NCBI RefSeq assembly: GCF_003334815.1
Contig: NZ_QOWO01000013.1
Source of the DNA: Escherichia coli
Lineage (GTDB): Bacteria > Pseudomonadota > Gammaproteobacteria > Enterobacterales > Enterobacteriaceae
DNA length: 64,000 nt
Direction: 5' to 3' (one strand)
Shown: piece by piece, positions 5,064 through 60,925 of the stretch
Position numbering within the stretch: the stretch's first letter is position 1
Layout of the letters: each line of letters begins with the position of its first letter
The notes under the pieces: generated by a model
The model's database searches: none
What the model saw: only the letters and a program-made list of their open reading frames with translations
What the model was told of the DNA's origin: nothing
Translations under genes and position numbers: made by a program

Positions 5064-7172
5064 TTAATTTCGGTTTCGGGTGACTTTAATCACGTCTGGC
5101 ATCACGCGGATTTTGCGCATGATATTCGCCAGATGCACACGGTCACGAGCGGTCAGACGAATAAAGGCGCTGTAGACGCGACCATCTTTCTCTTCCGTAT
5201 TCAAACTTTGAATATTCGAAGTCGTGGTGTTAATTGCCGCCGTCAGGTTTGCCAGCGCACCCTGATGATTGAACATCTCCACCTTGATTTCGGTGATGAA
5301 CTCCTGCGCCGTCTCTTTATCCCATTCCACAGCCATAAACTTCTCTGGCTCTTTCTGGTAGCCACGGATATTACGGCAGGATTCATGGTGGATCACCAGA
5401 CCTTTACCGGGGCTGACGTGGGCGATAATCGGGTCGCCAGGAATAGGGCGGCAGCATTTCGCAAAGGTGATCAGCACGCCATCGGCACCTTTAATGGGCA
5501 GATGTCCGTGGCTTTGGGTTGCCGGTGGAATGGAGGCGTCCCCATGTTGCAGATTTTTCGCGACCACCACGCTCATTGCGTTACCAAGTCCGATTTCTGC
5601 CAGCAGATCGTCAAGCGTTGCCAGCTTCATGCGATCCAGCTCGCGCTGAATATTTTCCTGCGGGATTTCATTCAGCTTACGGCTACCACCCAAAGCATGG
5701 TTGAGCAGACGACGGCCCAGGCTTACAGAATCATCACGCTTGAGGTTTTTCAGCAACTGACGAATTTTGGCGCGCGCTTTCGAGCTAACGACAAAGTTCA
5801 GCCAAGCGGCATTCGGGCGAGCGCCCGGAGCGGTAATGATTTCAACGGTTTGACCGCTGGTAAGCGGCTGCGACAGCGGGTAAGGCTGGCGGTCAACGCG
5901 TGCGCCCACGCAGGCATGACCGATATCGGTATGCACTGCATAAGCGAAGTCGACGGGCGTTGCACCGGCAGGCAGCTCGACAATGCGCCCTTCCGGTGTG
6001 AAAACGTAAATCTCATCCGGGAAGAGATCGGATTTAACGCTCTCGATAAATTCAAACGAACTACCGGCGCTCTGTTGCAGCTCCAGCAGGCTTTGCATCC
6101 AGCGCTGGGCGCGGATTTGTGCGGTAGTACTGGTTTCGCCGTGCTCTTTATAAGCCCAGTGCGCGGCAACACCCATCTCCGCCATCTGGTCCATATCTTC
6201 GGTACGGATCTGGACCTCAACCGGCACACCGTGCGGGCCGATCATCGAGGTGTGCAAAGACTGATAGCCGTTCGCTTTTGGAATGGCGATATAGTCTTTC
6301 ACGCGGCCCGGACGCGGCTTGTACAGGCTGTGCATCTGGCCCAGCACGCGATAACAGGTGTCAGAATCATTGACGATCACGCGGAAAGCGTAGATGTCCA
6401 TGATCGAGTGAAAACGCTGCTCTTTGAGCACCATTTTGCAGTAAATCGAATAAAGATGCTTCTCGCGACCACTGACGCGGCACGGTATTCCCGCTTCCTG
6501 CAAACGCCCTTCGATTTCAGAAAGAATCTTCTGGATCATCTCTTTACGGTTGCCGCGCGCGGCTTTCACCACTTCTTTGATTACGCGATAACGGTTGGGA
6601 TACAGCGCCTCAAAACCCAGCTCTTCGAGTTCGGTTTTAATGTGGTGGATACCTAAACGGTGCGCCAGCGGGCTATAAATTTCGAGAGTTTCACGGGCGA
6701 TGCGGCGACGTTTGTCCGGGCGAAGTGAGCCCAGCGTGCGCATGTTGTGGGTACGGTCGGCAAGTTTGATGAGGATGACGCGGATATCCTGCACCATCGC
6801 CATAATCATCTTGCGAAAGTTTTCGGCCTGCGCCTCTTTCTTATCGCGGAACTTGAGTTTATCAAGTTTCGACACCCCCTCTACCAGCTCGGCGACGCTT
6901 TTACCAAAAAGCTGTTCCATATCCTGGTAGGTGGCGGGAGTATCTTCAATCACGTCATGCAGCAGCGCCGCCATCAGCGTTTCATAGTCGAGTTTCATCT
7001 CGGCCAGAATGCAGGCAACCGCTACCGGGTGCGTGATATAGGGTTCACCGCTTGAACGTGTTTGCCCCTCGTGAGCATCACGTGCAACGAGATACGCCTG
7101 CCGCAGACGCTTGATTTGGTCTTCCGGCAGGTAGGTTTGAATCAGTTGATTCAGGCTTTCAAACAGATACAA
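5064..7172 (-). CDS. spoT: bifunctional (p)ppGpp synthetase/hydrolase SpoT
   Basis: ORF track 702 aa; HD hydrolase motif (HDVIEDT) plus RelA/SpoT synthetase region; directly downstream of rpoZ. Confidence 0.95.
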   Translation of the reverse strand: MYLFESLNQLIQTYLPEDQIKRLRQAYLVARDAHEGQTRSSGEPYITHPVAVACILAEMKLDYETLMAALLHDVIEDTPATYQDMEQLFGKSVAELVEGVSKLDKLKFRDKKEAQAENFRKMIMAMVQDIRVILIKLADRTHNMRTLGSLRPDKRRRIARETLEIYSPLAHRLGIHHIKTELEELGFEALYPNRYRVIKEVVKAARGNRKEMIQKILSEIEGRLQEAGIPCRVSGREKHLYSIYCKMVLKEQRFHSIMDIYAFRVIVNDSDTCYRVLGQMHSLYKPRPGRVKDYIAIPKANGYQSLHTSMIGPHGVPVEVQIRTEDMDQMAEMGVAAHWAYKEHGETSTTAQIRAQRWMQSLLELQQSAGSSFEFIESVKSDLFPDEIYVFTPEGRIVELPAGATPVDFAYAVHTDIGHACVGARVDRQPYPLSQPLTSGQTVEIITAPGARPNAAWLNFVVSSKARAKIRQLLKNLKRDDSVSLGRRLLNHALGGSRKLNEIPQENIQRELDRMKLATLDDLLAEIGLGNAMSVVVAKNLQHGDASIPPATQSHGHLPIKGADGVLITFAKCCRPIPGDPIIAHVSPGKGLVIHHESCRNIRGYQKEPEKFMAVEWDKETAQEFITEIKVEMFNHQGALANLTAAINTTTSNIQSLNTEEKDGRVYSAFIRLTARDRVHLANIMRKIRVMPDVIKVTRNRN

Positions 7173-7190
7173 GGGCGACCCGCTTTGTGA

Positions 7191-7466
7191 TTAACGACGA
7201 CCTTCAGCAATAGCGGTAACGGCTTGTAATTCAGCGGCTTCCTGCTCTTGCTGTTCCTGGCGTTCGCGAACGTCGAGGATCTGGTTGTTGATCAGACCTT
7301 CTTCGATTTCGCGCAGCGCGATTACAGTGGTTTTATCGTTTTCTTCCGGTACCAGCGGATCCTTTCCGCCTACCTGCATCTGACGAGCGCGACGCGCGGC
7401 GACCAGTACCAGGTCAAAACGGTTACCAATTTTCTCTACAGCGTCCTGAACAGTTACGCGTGCCAT
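7191..7466 (-). CDS. rpoZ: RNA polymerase omega subunit
   Basis: ORF track 91 aa [31 protein letters not shown]... Confidence 0.95.
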
Positions 7467-7520
7467 ACTTAAAAAGCTCCACAGGTGAAGAAATGACTGG
7501 GCATGATACTGAAATCAGGT

Positions 7521-10698
<3,178 letters not shown>

Positions 10699-29376: not shown

Positions 29377-30228
29377 ATGAAGAATATTAGATACATTGAC
29401 AAAAAAGATGTTGAAAACCTGATTGAAAATAAAACATCTGATGATGTTATTATTTTTCTTTCGGGCCCTACATCGCAAAAAACACCTTTGTCAGTATTAC
29501 GAACAAAGGATATTATTGCTGTCAATGGTTCTGCGCAATATCTGTTAAGTAATAATATCGTTCCTTTTATATATGTACTTACAGATGTCCGATTTTTACA
29601 TCAGCGTCGTGATGATTTTTATAAATTTAGCCAGAGAAGTCGTTATACCATAGTAAACGTTGACGTTTATGAACACGCTTCCAAAGAAGATAAACTTTAT
29701 ATCCTCCAGAACTGCCTCGTATTACGGTCCTTTTACCGTCGGGAAAAAGGTGGTTTTATAAAGAAGATTAAATTTAATATTTTGAGACAGATTCACAAAG
29801 AACTGCTGATCTCTGTACCGTTGTCTAAAAAAGGTCGTCTGGTTGGATTTTGCAAGGACATTAGTCTTGGTTATTGCTCATGCCATACTATTGCCTTTGC
29901 TGCAATTCAAATCGCATATTCACTTAAGTATGCGCGGATTATTTGTTCTGGTCTTGATTTAACGGGTAGCTGTTCTCGTTTCTATGATGAGAATAAAAAT
30001 CCCATGCCCTCGGAATTAAGTAGGGATTTATTCAAAATATTGCCATTTTTTCGTTTTATGCATGATAATGTAAAAGATATTAATATTTATAATTTATCAG
30101 ATGATACAGCTATTTCTTACGATGTAATTCCATTTATTAAACTTCAAGACATCAGTGCAGAAGAATCAAAAGATATGACAAGAAAAAAAATGCAATATAG
30201 AACTTCAACCGATTCTTATGCTAATTAA
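29377..30228 (+). CDS. waaZ: LPS core biosynthesis protein WaaZ
   Basis: ORF track 283 aa; AT-rich; K-12-type core gene order. Confidence 0.85.
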   Translation: MKNIRYIDKKDVENLIENKTSDDVIIFLSGPTSQKTPLSVLRTKDIIAVNGSAQYLLSNNIVPFIYVLTDVRFLHQRRDDFYKFSQRSRYTIVNVDVYEHASKEDKLYILQNCLVLRSFYRREKGGFIKKIKFNILRQIHKELLISVPLSKKGRLVGFCKDISLGYCSCHTIAFAAIQIAYSLKYARIICSGLDLTGSCSRFYDENKNPMPSELSRDLFKILPFFRFMHDNVKDINIYNLSDDTAISYDVIPFIKLQDISAEESKDMTRKKMQYRTSTDSYAN

Positions 30229-30260
30229 TCATCCTGAAACTAAAATAATATGGTATAAAA

Positions 30261-31334
30261 ATGCGCTTAGGAACTTTTCACAAAAAGAAAAGATTTTATA
30301 TAAACAAAATCAAGATTAATTTCCTTTCTTTTTTATTTCGTAATAAAATAAATAATCAAATTACAGATCCAGCACAAGTTAAATCATGCCTTATTATTCA
30401 TGATAATAATAAACTTGGTGATCTAATTGTATTAAGTTCGATTTATCGTGAACTTTATAGTAAAGGGGTTAAAATAACTCTTCTCACAAATAGAAAGGGT
30501 GGGGAATTTCTCTCTAATAATAAAAATATATTTGAGTTCTGTATTAAAGAATCAACCGGTTTTCTTGAAATGCTTACTCTATGTAAGCATCTGCGGGATT
30601 TACAGTTCGATATTGTATTAGACCCCTTTGAAACTATGCCCTCATTTAAGCATAGCTTAATATTATCAAGTTTAAAAGATTCTTACATTCTGGGTTTTGA
30701 TCATTGGTATAAGCGTTACTATTCATTTTACCATCCCCACGATGAATGTTTAAAAGAACATATGAGTACACGAGCAATAGAAATACTGAAGCATATTTAT
30801 GGTGAGGGTAAATTTTCCACCAACTACGACTTGCATTTACCAGTAGATGTTGAAGATAAAATAAAAGAATTTATTGGAGATACAAGAATAGTCATTATTA
30901 ATCCATTAGGTGCAAAAAAAATATGCCGTCTTACGTTTGAGCAAATAAAAGTTATATATCAAGAAGTGAAAACACACTTTGAAAATTATCGGATTATATT
31001 TACCGGGTTACCGCAAGATTTATTGACAATACCAATACTTGAAATCGAAACACTACCATTTGATGAGTTTATTTATACCGTTGCGTTGACCAAGTATAGT
31101 GATTTTGTCATTTCTGTTGATACAGCTCTTGTTCATATCGCTGCGGCTTATCATAAACCAACGCTTGCATTTTACCCTAATTCACGTACTCCGGAATATC
31201 CCTCGCATTTAATTTGGTCCCCGAATCATCATAAATCTATACAAATAGTATCCCCAACATATACGGTAAAAGATATCGATACTGAAACTTTAACTAATTC
31301 AGTAAAGAGATTAAGTTGTATAGATAAGAAGTGA
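30261..31334 (+). CDS. waaU: LPS heptosyltransferase IV WaaU (RfaK; GT9)
   Basis: ORF track 357 aa; last gene of the plus-strand waaQ operon. Confidence 0.85.
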   Translation: MRLGTFHKKKRFYINKIKINFLSFLFRNKINNQITDPAQVKSCLIIHDNNKLGDLIVLSSIYRELYSKGVKITLLTNRKGGEFLSNNKNIFEFCIKESTGFLEMLTLCKHLRDLQFDIVLDPFETMPSFKHSLILSSLKDSYILGFDHWYKRYYSFYHPHDECLKEHMSTRAIEILKHIYGEGKFSTNYDLHLPVDVEDKIKEFIGDTRIVIINPLGAKKICRLTFEQIKVIYQEVKTHFENYRIIFTGLPQDLLTIPILEIETLPFDEFIYTVALTKYSDFVISVDTALVHIAAAYHKPTLAFYPNSRTPEYPSHLIWSPNHHKSIQIVSPTYTVKDIDTETLTNSVKRLSCIDKK

Positions 31335-57828: not shown

Positions 57829-58191
57829 ATGTTTCTAAACTATTTCGCGTTGGGAGTGCTGATCTTCGTCTTTCTGGTGATTTTTTATGGAATCATCGCG
57901 ATACATGACATCCCTTATCTGATTGCCAAAAAGCGCAACCATCCCCATGCCGACGCTATTCATACGGCGGGCTGGGTGAGCCTGTTTACTCTGCATGTTA
58001 TCTGGCCGTTTCTGTGGATCTGGGCGACGCTCTATCAACCGGAGCGTGGCTGGGGTATGCAGTCACATGTTGCGTCGCAGGAGAAAGCGACTGACCCGGA
58101 AATCGCCGCACTTTCTGACCGAATTTCCCGGCTGGAGCATCAACTCGCCGCCGAGAAAAAGACTGACTATTCCACGTTCCCGGAGATCTAA
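57829..58191 (+). CDS. yibI: small inner-membrane protein YibI
   Basis: ORF track 120 aa; two hydrophobic segments then a charged C-terminal tail. Confidence 0.82.
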
Positions 58192-58193
58192 TT

Positions 58194-59330
58194 ATGGATC
58201 TATTGATTGTTTTAACTTACGTGGCGCTGGCGTGGGCGGTCTTTAAAATCTTCCGCATTCCGGTAAATCAGTGGACGCTGGCGACGGCGGCGCTGGGAGG
58301 CGTGTTTCTGGTGAGTGGTTTGATTTTGTTGATGAACTACAACCACCCTTACACTTTTACCGCGCAAAAGGCAGTGATAGCGATCCCTATCACGCCACAG
58401 GTGACGGGAATTGTTACTGAAGTCACTGACAAGAATAATCAGCTTATTCAAAAGGGCGAGGTGCTTTTTAAGCTCGACCCGGTTCGTTACCAGGCGCGAG
58501 TTGACAGACTTCAGGCTGACCTGATGACGGCGACGCATAATATAAAGACGCTGCGTGCGCAGCTCACTGAAGCGCAGGCCAACACCACCCAGGTTTCAGC
58601 GGAGCGCGACCGTCTGTTTAAAAATTATCAACGTTACTTGAAAGGCAGCCAGGCGGCGGTGAATCCGTTCTCGGAACGTGACATCGACGATGCGCGGCAA
58701 AATTTCCTCGCGCAGGATGCGCTGGTGAAAGGCTCGGTGGCGGAGCAGGCGCAGATCCAGAGCCAGCTCGACAGTATGGTTAACGGCGAGCAATCGCAGA
58801 TTGTGAGCTTAAGAGCGCAACTTACTGAAGCAAAATATAACCTTGAGCAGACTGTCATTCGCGCGCCGAGCAATGGCTACGTTACTCAGGTACTGATCCG
58901 CCCAGGTACATACGCAGCTGCCTTGCCGCTGCGTCCGGTGATGGTCTTCATCCCCGAGCAAAAACGGCAAATTGTCGCCCAATTTCGGCAAAACTCGCTG
59001 TTACGTCTGAAACCCGGCGATGATGCGGAAGTGGTGTTTAACGCGCTACCTGGGCAGGTGTTTCACGGCAAACTGACTAGTATTTTACCTGTCGTGCCAG
59101 GCGGTTCTTATCAGGCGCAGGGGGTATTGCAATCATTAACGGTCGTGCCCGGCACGGACGGTGTGCTGGGAACCATTGAACTGGACCCTAACGATGATAT
59201 CGATGCCTTACCCGACGGCATCTACGCCCAGGTGGCGGTTTACTCCGACCATTTCAGCCATGTTTCGGTGATGCGGAAAGTGCTGCTAAGAATGACCAGC
59301 TGGATGCATTATCTTTATTTGGATCATTGA
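58194..59330 (+). CDS. yibH: HlyD-family membrane fusion protein YibH
   Basis: ORF track 378 aa; N-terminal TM, long coiled coil, beta-rich C-terminus; 2 nt after yibI. Confidence 0.85.
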
Positions 59331-59892
59331 GGGGGAGGGGGGAGATTATGGAACTTTGCTCCTTGTAAGGACTAATTATTTTTGCATATTACTTCATTAG
59401 CTGCGATGATTTTTCTTTAATATTCATTATGTTAATAAGTTCTGGATGAGTGTGCTCTCATTGGATTTTTTATCCGTCTTGTTCTGCCGCAGGATGAGAC
59501 TATACATCGTCGAGATCGCAATGATGATATGAGTTGTTCCTCCTGCGACGGCTCTAATCAAAAAAGAGCAGGAGTGCTTTTCCATCTATTGCGATGATGG
59601 CTTTATTATCTGAAGGATGACAGTCACATTTAAAAAATATTTAATCTATAGATCACAATGTAGGGTCATGGAATATATGTATACAACTATTTTCTTCTTC
59701 ACTTTTAATTATCGTATTCATTATAAAACTAAGTTAAAAAAACTCCTGGAGAGTGAGTTATTAATATATTTTTAAATAAAATTAAGTTATCATTCATCGA
59801 TGCACTTTATAGAATCATCAATGGCCATAATAGTACTATTAACTCTCAATTTTATATTTTTATCATCACTACAAATATTAACTGAATTTATA

Positions 59893-60228
59893 TCAATGAT
59901 TTTTTTTATTCTTATCTTTTATTTTATTTACTGTTTCAATGCAATCAGCGGCAAGTTGGAGTGGATTTAGATTTTTCAGATATGGTCTTATGATCTTTCC
60001 CTTACTTAATAAATAGCATGTATAGGATTCGGAAAGTCCAGCATCTATTTTGTACCTCATTATATTAGATAAGGATGTGAGAAATTCCTTGTTATCATTC
60101 GCAGCCATATATGCCAGTCCGAGTTCAGCCTCTGCGGCCTTACAGGCAAAATAGCTTAGTGAACACGCTTTTCGTCCCTCTTTAGTACTGGCTGATATTA
60201 GTGCCCATAATATTGCTTTGTCTGCCAA
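59893..60228 (-). CDS. hypothetical 111-aa ORF at the distal end of the rhs accessory array (possible orphan immunity gene)
   Basis: ORF track only; track start is a TTG and the first ATG is internal; AT-rich; no recognisable motif. Confidence 0.35.
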   Translation of the reverse strand: MADKAILWALISASTKEGRKACSLSYFACKAAEAELGLAYMAANDNKEFLTSLSNIMRYKIDAGLSESYTCYLLSKGKIIRPYLKNLNPLQLAADCIETVNKIKDKNKKNH

Positions 60229-60316
60229 ATCTAACTCTCTCTGAAATTGTCTTGCAGTAACTGCACTCGCAGAAATAGAGAAAAAAATACAATTGTTAAT
60301 AACCTTGCCATATTTT

Positions 60317-60610
60317 TTAGTCCGTAACTGTTAATGTGCTATCTGGCTCTGAAAATATTAACTCATTTAATTTTTGCATGTCATTAGATAAACCAGTTAT
60401 ACAACCCTCGGAACAGAATCGAGGTCCTAAAGACGGACCAAAAGCGTTTAAACAACTATGTATTGAAAATCCATTGCGATTATAAGTTCCTGTATTAACT
60501 GACGGTACTAATCGTATGCCGTCAGGTTTTCTATTGCTTGCTCCCGGGTCATTAACATTCCAACTCCATAGGCCTTGAGGTATTGGCCATCTATTTATAA
60601 ATGTGTACAA
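60317..60610 (-). pseudogene. probable remnant of an orphan Rhs C-terminal toxin tip
   Basis: ORF track 97 aa starting at TTG; lies directly downstream of the degenerate rhs core-end fragment but in a different frame. Confidence 0.35.
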
Positions 60611-60744
60611 CGGGGATTATTTTTACATTGCATATTATTACCAGAAGCGACTGGAATACTAAGCACATCATAAAAATTATCATCACATGGTATATCTGAA
60701 ACACACGAAAGCATACCTAAAGTTATGCTGTATAAACAGGTGGC

Positions 60745-60925
60745 TAATCCCAAGGGGATCGATTCCAGAAATCGGGTTCAACGGATACTGATAAAAATTC
60801 CACCTACCTTCCAGCCCAATCGGAGCCTGAGTGTTATACCGCCCCTGCTGCGGTTAATGTTACCGATAATAGTTATAGTACAGCCCTGATTCATCATCAT
60901 ACTACTGCTGCGGCAGTCTGATGAA
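60745..60925 (-). pseudogene. degenerate Rhs core C-terminal fragment with in-frame stops
   Basis: Reverse translation gives [54 protein letters not shown], a decayed copy of the rhs core end ([20 protein letters not shown]...[24 protein letters not shown]). Confidence 0.6.

Follow-up and report, generated by a model that had tools for sequence, protein, structure and literature searches.

An AT-rich, ORF-poor spacer beside yibH of Escherichia coli as the probable decayed end of the RhsA toxin-immunity array

What lies in the 562 bp that separate the core gene yibH from the RhsA array in Escherichia coli; is it a gene too small for a list of open reading frames (ORFs), an RNA, a regulatory element, or maybe the remains of something else? 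The interval, positions 59331-59892 of a 64-kb window of DNA (the whole stretch analysed here), starts directly after the TGA of yibH (58194-59330, plus strand), which, like yibI before it (57829-58191, plus strand), runs toward the interval, and it ends at yibV. From the other side it is met by the minus-strand RhsA array, which points at it with the 3' end of rhsA, then yibA, yibJ, yibG, yibS/yibW and yibV, so that yibH and the array are laid out convergently. An earlier note on this DNA had placed the interval between yibH and an rhs array, and those are its neighbours. The window is nearly identical to E. coli K-12 DNA and reversed in orientation relative to MG1655, a base g of NC_000913.3 falling at window position 59330 + 3770243 - g. 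A 1.1-kb query spanning the interval finds matches in 5405 of 5426 complete E. coli genomes, K-12 strains matching at 99.9-100%.

We consider it very probable that the interval contains no discrete gene or RNA and that it is what decay has left of the RhsA toxin-immunity array at its distal end, where the array meets yibH. The last module of the array pairs an orphan Rhs toxin tip of the Tlde1 type, now broken (yibS/yibW), with an Imm57 immunity gene that is broken twice (yibV). Read along the minus strand, the interval would then comprise the severed last 34 codons of the Imm57 gene, the AT-rich 3' flank of that gene, a 233-bp scrap of an insertion sequence (yibU) and a 64-bp junction leading to the yibH stop.

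The scarcity of ORFs is real: as the earlier note had pointed out for about 560 bp, no ORF of at least 60 aa is found on either strand, and a scan of all 64 kb makes 59331-59892 the longest such stretch of the window. Base composition predicts this poverty, because 77% of random sequences with the dinucleotide make-up of the interval also lack an ORF of at least 60 aa, compared with 6% of those with the composition typical of the window; stop triplets are 1.8 times denser in the interval than window-wide. In other words, the absence of ORFs is a composition effect and no signal in itself. The very low GC content described for the interval was confirmed as well, at 31.5% versus 48.2% for the window (4th percentile among 562-bp windows), though it is uneven, with 40.4% in 59331-59600 and 23.3% in 59601-59892. 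The lowest-GC 562-bp stretch of the window is a different one, at about 30000-30560 (26% GC), which by coordinate conversion is the waa (LPS core) cluster, where several published promoter islands are also located.

At its yibV end, the interval begins with what used to be coding DNA. The minus-strand translation of 59790-59892, 33 sense codons and a stop that are out of frame with yibV, reads IDINSVNICSDDKNIKLRVNSTIMAIDDSIKCIDE and aligns to the C-termini of intact 173-aa Imm57 proteins (P0004, P0006, P0009). Intact 173-aa Imm57 genes sit at the same place beside yibH in other E. coli (L008, L009, L010), with the same spacer of about 458 bp to yibH. In the window, the adjoining gene yibV (b4615; 59893-60228, minus strand; 111 aa), annotated in MG1655 as 'PF15596 family protein YibV', is the middle of the Imm57 gene and holds most of the Pfam Imm57 domain. 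It ends 34 codons early because one T too many has entered a homopolymer at 59897-59904, which is T8 here (A8 in coding orientation) and one base shorter in intact-gene alleles (T7 or TTTTTCT); at this break the protein alignment has DKN-KKIID in the intact relatives versus DKNKKNH and a stop in yibV. The N-terminal piece (60229-60311, minus strand), with its signal-peptide-like start MARLLTIV, is severed because one base is missing next to A7, near 60282-60289. Two one-base indels in homopolymer runs thus leave the Imm57 gene in three frames. When repaired, the 173-aa translation matches Pfam Imm57 (PF15596) with an E-value of 1.9e-47 over residues 29-126 (model positions 2-100 of 100), and in the PGAP annotation 59790-60311 appears as Imm57 with a frameshift. 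At its 3' side, the gene really ends 103 bp within what was taken for a spacer. Among database protein clusters, the truncation pattern of the Imm57 gene varies widely (for example 111, 119, 128, 139, 153 and 169 aa, next to the intact 173 aa), and some of these truncations may be homopolymer errors of long-read assemblies and not real alleles.

The partner of this gene can be recognized too. A Tlde1-domain gene stands immediately upstream of Imm57 in four other loci (L005, L008, L009, L012), and the corresponding toxin in the window is the pseudogene pair yibS/yibW. This pair (about 60317-60900, minus strand) is what remains of an Rhs toxin tip with a Tlde1 domain. In other E. coli (L005, L008, L009) the tip is intact beside an intact Imm57 gene, and in Citrobacter (L012) and Escherichia albertii (L018) it forms part of a full-length Rhs protein, again paired with Imm57; the Tlde1-domain toxin tip and Imm57 are a genuine Rhs toxin-immunity pair. 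The arrangement is that of the orphan toxin-tip/immunity modules known from Rhs C-terminal displacement arrays, and the immunity gene (Imm57) of the last module has its true 3' end in 59790-59892. In contrast to working orphan modules, both the toxin tip and the immunity gene of the window are pseudogenes, and no functional module is left.

Farther toward yibH lies a second relic. Positions 59395-59627 (minus strand, 233 bp) come from the interior of a transposase gene of the ISAs1 family (H-rpt) and correspond to the K-12 pseudogene yibU (b4652), annotated as such in MG1655 at what is 59427-59625 of the window; the similarity to ISAs1 extends 32 bp past the annotated end, to 59395. The fragment shares 77% nucleotide identity over 233-235 bp with the ISEc1, ydcC, ybfD and yhhI transposase genes (E 5e-40) and matches nucleotides 284-517 of yhhI (blastn E 4e-47). 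The NCBIfam model transpos_ISAs1 is matched at positions 96-131 of 314 with an E-value of 6.8e-5, below the full-length cut-off, as is expected of a fragment, and blastn and NCBIfam agree in assigning the piece to the ISAs1 family. An intact DDE transposase would take about 340-380 codons, and here only YhhI residues from about 96 to 172 are represented. A tblastn search with YhhI recovers residues 96-123 in one frame and 124-159 in another, and the fragment carries one in-frame stop and one frameshift. No terminal inverted repeats or IS ends were found; the match to the complete H-rptB, ends included, does not extend past the internal 233-235 bp.

The position of yibU is nonetheless that of other elements of its kind. 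Like yhhI in the RhsB array, where an H-rpt lies at the Rhs end, yibU sits at the distal end of its array and in the orientation of the array; unlike H-rpt elements of about 1.3 kb, it is reduced to 233 bp with no terminal repeats and a broken frame, and its lineage is about 23% diverged from ISEc1. In E. albertii (L018), an H-rpt with an intact left end, 96% identical to K-12 H-rptB, lies about 125 bp downstream of the Imm57 gene, and since this H-rpt also follows Imm57, an IS of the H-rpt family capping the array is a recurring layout. The E. albertii locus has its own history: the H-rpt (L018, 5900-6500) is truncated after transposase residue 161, the Imm57 gene itself is split by an IS3-family element, and a reverse-transcriptase and group II intron maturase gene (6987-8315) starts about 490 bp beyond the H-rpt, at 6987.

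Two pieces of the interval remain, and both are unique sequence. The junction piece (59331-59394, 64 bp) shows no H-rpt similarity in a comparison with the complete H-rptB; it is present as a single copy in 3730 of the 5426 complete genomes, with no second copy elsewhere. The AT-rich piece (59628-59789, 162 bp, approximately 77% AT) is the intergenic 3' flank of the Imm57 gene and occurs once per genome in 3700 of them. No paralogous copies of either piece were detected in these 5426 E. coli genomes. Beyond the Imm57 stop, the window and the E. albertii Imm57 locus have only the first 30 bp in common.

The junction piece starts with the G tract GGGGGAGGGGGGAG (59331-59344), the feature that the earlier note had reported right after the yibH stop; it indeed begins at the first base past the TGA, and it is the sole 14-mer of the window with at least 12 G (or C), where 0.28 would be expected. 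The tract differs among alleles, for example TAGGGAAGGGGGAG and GGGGGGCGGGGGAG. In strain SCU-387 (L004, 6131-6145), a G-rich tract, GGGGGAAGGGGC, also follows the yibH stop; instead of the RhsA array, this strain has an island of quite another kind, with an HTH gene and a fimbrial operon. At the empty yibH|yibF site, the G-rich tract is missing. The tract may be older than either island, or it may be a shared insertion scar.

To which side of the boundary does the interval belong? At least 80% of it is present in 3684 of 5426 complete E. coli genomes (approximately 68%), always together with the RhsA array. Further evidence comes from array-less strains (e.g. LR-58-2, L003), in which the yibH TGA is followed by 32 unrelated bases and then by the region upstream of yibF; in K-12, the other boundary of the array is just upstream of yibF. 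Because such empty-site strains join yibH to yibF, the whole interval belongs to the RhsA island, with the break at 59331. In yet other strains, yibH is followed by another island (an HTH gene and fimbrial genes) or by IS-mediated rearrangements. Thus, the suggestion that this is the edge of an accessory array gains support from the comparison of the junction across strains, which supplies both the empty site and the exact break. The fallback reading offered alongside it, that the interval is simply variable junk across strains, did not survive: the interval is a fixed component of the array, in single copy, and is at least 99% identical in about nine of ten carrier genomes. Among 5320 matching records, the best match has at least 99% identity in 3357, 90-95% in 322 and 60-80% in 1490, and this last class has ISAs1 paralogues among the matches listed.

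Divergence was measured between the window and four alleles of the divergent class (L005, L008-L010). The junction differs by 5-8%, the ISAs1 fragment by 6-7% and the AT-rich piece by 5-6%, compared with 9-10% for the Imm57 tail, 5-6% for yibV and 1-4% for yibH. By this measure the interval stands out neither for conservation nor for variability, and its evolution looks neutral. Relative to the window, the divergent alleles have one-base deletions at 59542, in the ISAs1 fragment, and at 59632, in an A run, and the frames of every larger ORF of the interval are therefore changed. Additionally, three IS events, each in a single strain (L015, L016, L017), have struck the AT-rich half: IS1A at 59615-59623 with a 9-bp target duplication, ISEc69 at 59777-59784 with an 8-bp duplication, and another IS1A, at 59802, accompanied by an adjacent deletion that runs from Imm57 through yibG. 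These insertions and this deletion fit dispensable DNA.

Composition, homologies and presence or absence across strains come from our own comparisons; for the binding of RNA polymerase and H-NS, and for silence, we turn to the literature on the AT-rich half. RNA polymerase binding is reported there both by in vitro SELEX (PMC3946193) and by work on promoter islands (PMC3661553). In the former, Shimada 2014 lists an RpoD-holoenzyme site yibV>yibU with the hexamers TTAACT and GATAAT, and the sigma-70-like promoter that our consensus scan places on the minus strand (TTAACT at 59737-59732, GATAAT at 59713-59708) consists of the same two hexamers; we count a spacer of 18 bp between them, where PMC3946193 prints 15. 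In the latter, Panyukov and Ozoline 2013 (PLoS One, PMC3661553) describe promoter islands as transcriptionally silent DNA of high AT content and horizontal origin, to which RNA polymerase and H-NS bind, and their Table 1 includes 3767592_418, yibV(+)/yibH(-), among 78 such islands of K-12. According to the same source, this island overlaps a predicted genomic island (Table 1) and is H-NS-bound in all ChIP studies compared there; a re-analysis of 5'-end RNA-seq data found, among the islands in the genome's last quarter, a single one with long RNAs, and this was not 3767592_418 (PMC3661553).

The islands are defined with PlatProm, a method of the same group, and their coordinates are given in U00096.2. 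With an offset of +1977 from U00096.2 to NC_000913.3, based on the difference in genome length, 3767592_418 presumably lies at about 59587-60004 of the window, within a few bases. The island and the AT-rich half of the interval are thus the same DNA: the island covers 306 of the 562 bp plus 112 bp of yibV, and it leaves out the half with 40% GC, which holds the junction and the ISAs1 fragment. ChIP-chip near rhs genes is prone to false positives at repeated sequence (PMC2996942), a caveat that touches the ISAs1 fragment and not the AT-rich part, because the latter is single copy. The H-NS binding and the transcriptional silence of the AT-rich half both come from one secondary source (PMC3661553), and with them the description of the interval as xenogeneic, H-NS-silenced DNA given by the earlier note is supported: there is a published promoter island, reported as bound by H-NS in ChIP, that overlaps a predicted genomic island.

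The composition of the interval is likewise that of DNA on which H-NS acts, with 23-40% GC versus 48% for the window, and the interval is missing from approximately 32% of complete genomes. H-NS silences AT-rich, horizontally acquired DNA with spurious promoters, a process known as xenogeneic silencing. The interval resembles this general case in that it is AT-rich, accessory, rich in promoter-like hexamers, reported to be H-NS-bound, and the source of no productive transcript in published reports, and it has no feature that distinguishes it from other H-NS-silenced DNA of horizontal origin. Seven promoter-like sites are found in 59000-60500, compared with 6.0 +/- 2.3 in dinucleotide shuffles (by a simple consensus scan, not PlatProm); the site density is that of composition-matched shuffles, and the promoter "island" is therefore probably a consequence of AT-richness. 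We hypothesize that the promoter-like sites, as a by-product of this composition, would be kept silent by a coat of H-NS, and that such silencing would also stop minus-strand transcription from entering yibH in the antisense direction.

Might the AT-rich piece instead be a regulatory element under selection, whether a nucleation site for H-NS, an insulator, or an antisense promoter controlling yibIH upon relief from H-NS? H-NS (PMC3661553) and RNA polymerase (PMC3946193) are both reported to bind here, transcripts from 59737-59708 would traverse yibU into the 3' end of yibH, and a minus-strand RNA would finish in the C-rich tract CUCCCCCCUCCCCC beside yibH. However, the promoter-like sites are no more frequent than in composition-matched shuffles, and the high-affinity H-NS motif TCGATAAATT (at most 2 mismatches) shows no informative enrichment either, with three weak matches in the interval and 97 matches window-wide versus 83 +/- 10 expected. 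The piece diverges like the neighbouring pseudogenes and takes up IS insertions, and it is absent along with the array from about one third of strains, which keep yibIH. We therefore regard selection for such an element as improbable. The most explicit version, in which the promoter at 59737-59708, silenced by H-NS, fires upon displacement of H-NS and conditionally regulates the yibIH membrane-protein operon by antisense, its RNA crossing yibU, entering the 3' end of yibH and ending at the C-rich tract, strikes us as decidedly improbable.

An unannotated sRNA, for example from the 3' UTR of yibH or from the minus-strand promoter at 59737-59708, could point to that same promoter with its in vitro binding of holoenzyme (PMC3946193), to the near identity of the interval in most carrier genomes (at least 99%), and to a weak minus-strand hairpin followed by a U run (about 59759-59736). 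This hairpin has a 7-bp interrupted stem, stands 30-50 nt past the Imm57 stop and scores below the threshold of the terminator scan; it may be what remains of the terminator of the Imm57 gene. No terminator inside 59331-59892 passes the scan. An Rfam scan up to an E-value of 10 gave no match in the interval and three chance-level matches overall, one of them to a snoRNA model within yibH. Folds of four sub-stretches on both strands are no more stable than shuffles (z -0.55, +0.92, -0.16 and +1.58). Thus, nowhere in the interval do a promoter and a terminator bracket a conserved, structured RNA. Moreover, the divergence equals that of neighbouring pseudogenes, IS insertions are tolerated, and the published re-analysis has no long RNA from island 3767592_418 (PMC3661553). 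The hidden sRNA that the earlier note had envisaged is in our judgment very improbable.

The same note had allowed for small proteins below the 60-aa cut-off of the ORF list, and eleven ORFs of 15-56 aa do overlap the interval. Most of the larger ones fail at once, as the 52-aa ORFs (on both strands) and a 22-aa ORF at 59529-59597 are frameshifted in all four divergent alleles, which differ by 6-7%, and three of these alleles disrupt the 56-aa ORF in the same way. Three shorter ORFs (18-28 aa), at 59446-59532 (plus strand), 59646-59702 (minus strand) and 59653-59721 (minus strand), stay open in all four alleles; each has 3-4 amino-acid changes from 4-7 nucleotide changes, so the substitutions mostly alter the protein, and 4-7 substitutions per ORF are too few to show or exclude selection. 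A six-codon mini-ORF (59349-59369, plus strand; ATG GAA CTT TGC TCC TTG TAA) sits 3 nt behind a strong Shine-Dalgarno-like GGAGGGGGGAG, but it loses its stop (TAA to CAA) in L008-type alleles and is not conserved. No ORF of the interval combines an open frame with a purifying pattern across the divergent alleles. That the ORFs look hydrophobic is due to the T-rich codons of AT-rich DNA, and a search of NCBIfam with the two largest plus-strand ORFs returned no families, the yibU ORF alone giving its ISAs1 match. The small proteins YibX and YibY, considered as products of the interval, are ruled out, their genes being antisense to waaL. Small proteins are thus hardly to be expected here, and two pseudogene remnants are found in their place.

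Neither the sRNA nor the small-protein reading, nor that of an insulator or antisense promoter, finds positive support, and we return to the decayed distal end of the RhsA array. The yibU fragment, yibV with its Imm57 domain, and the promoter island are all already annotated or published, and the interval is an ordinary one. A mobilome preprint in which rhsA is mentioned does not deal with the interval. For an AT-rich, ORF-poor spacer at the edge of an accessory array, pseudogene remnants and base composition are a sufficient account, with no candidate for a new gene. What the locus offers is a clean example of how orphan Rhs modules decay: the immunity gene is frameshifted in homopolymer runs, the toxin tip is lost and the capping IS erodes, all in DNA that would be coated by H-NS throughout.
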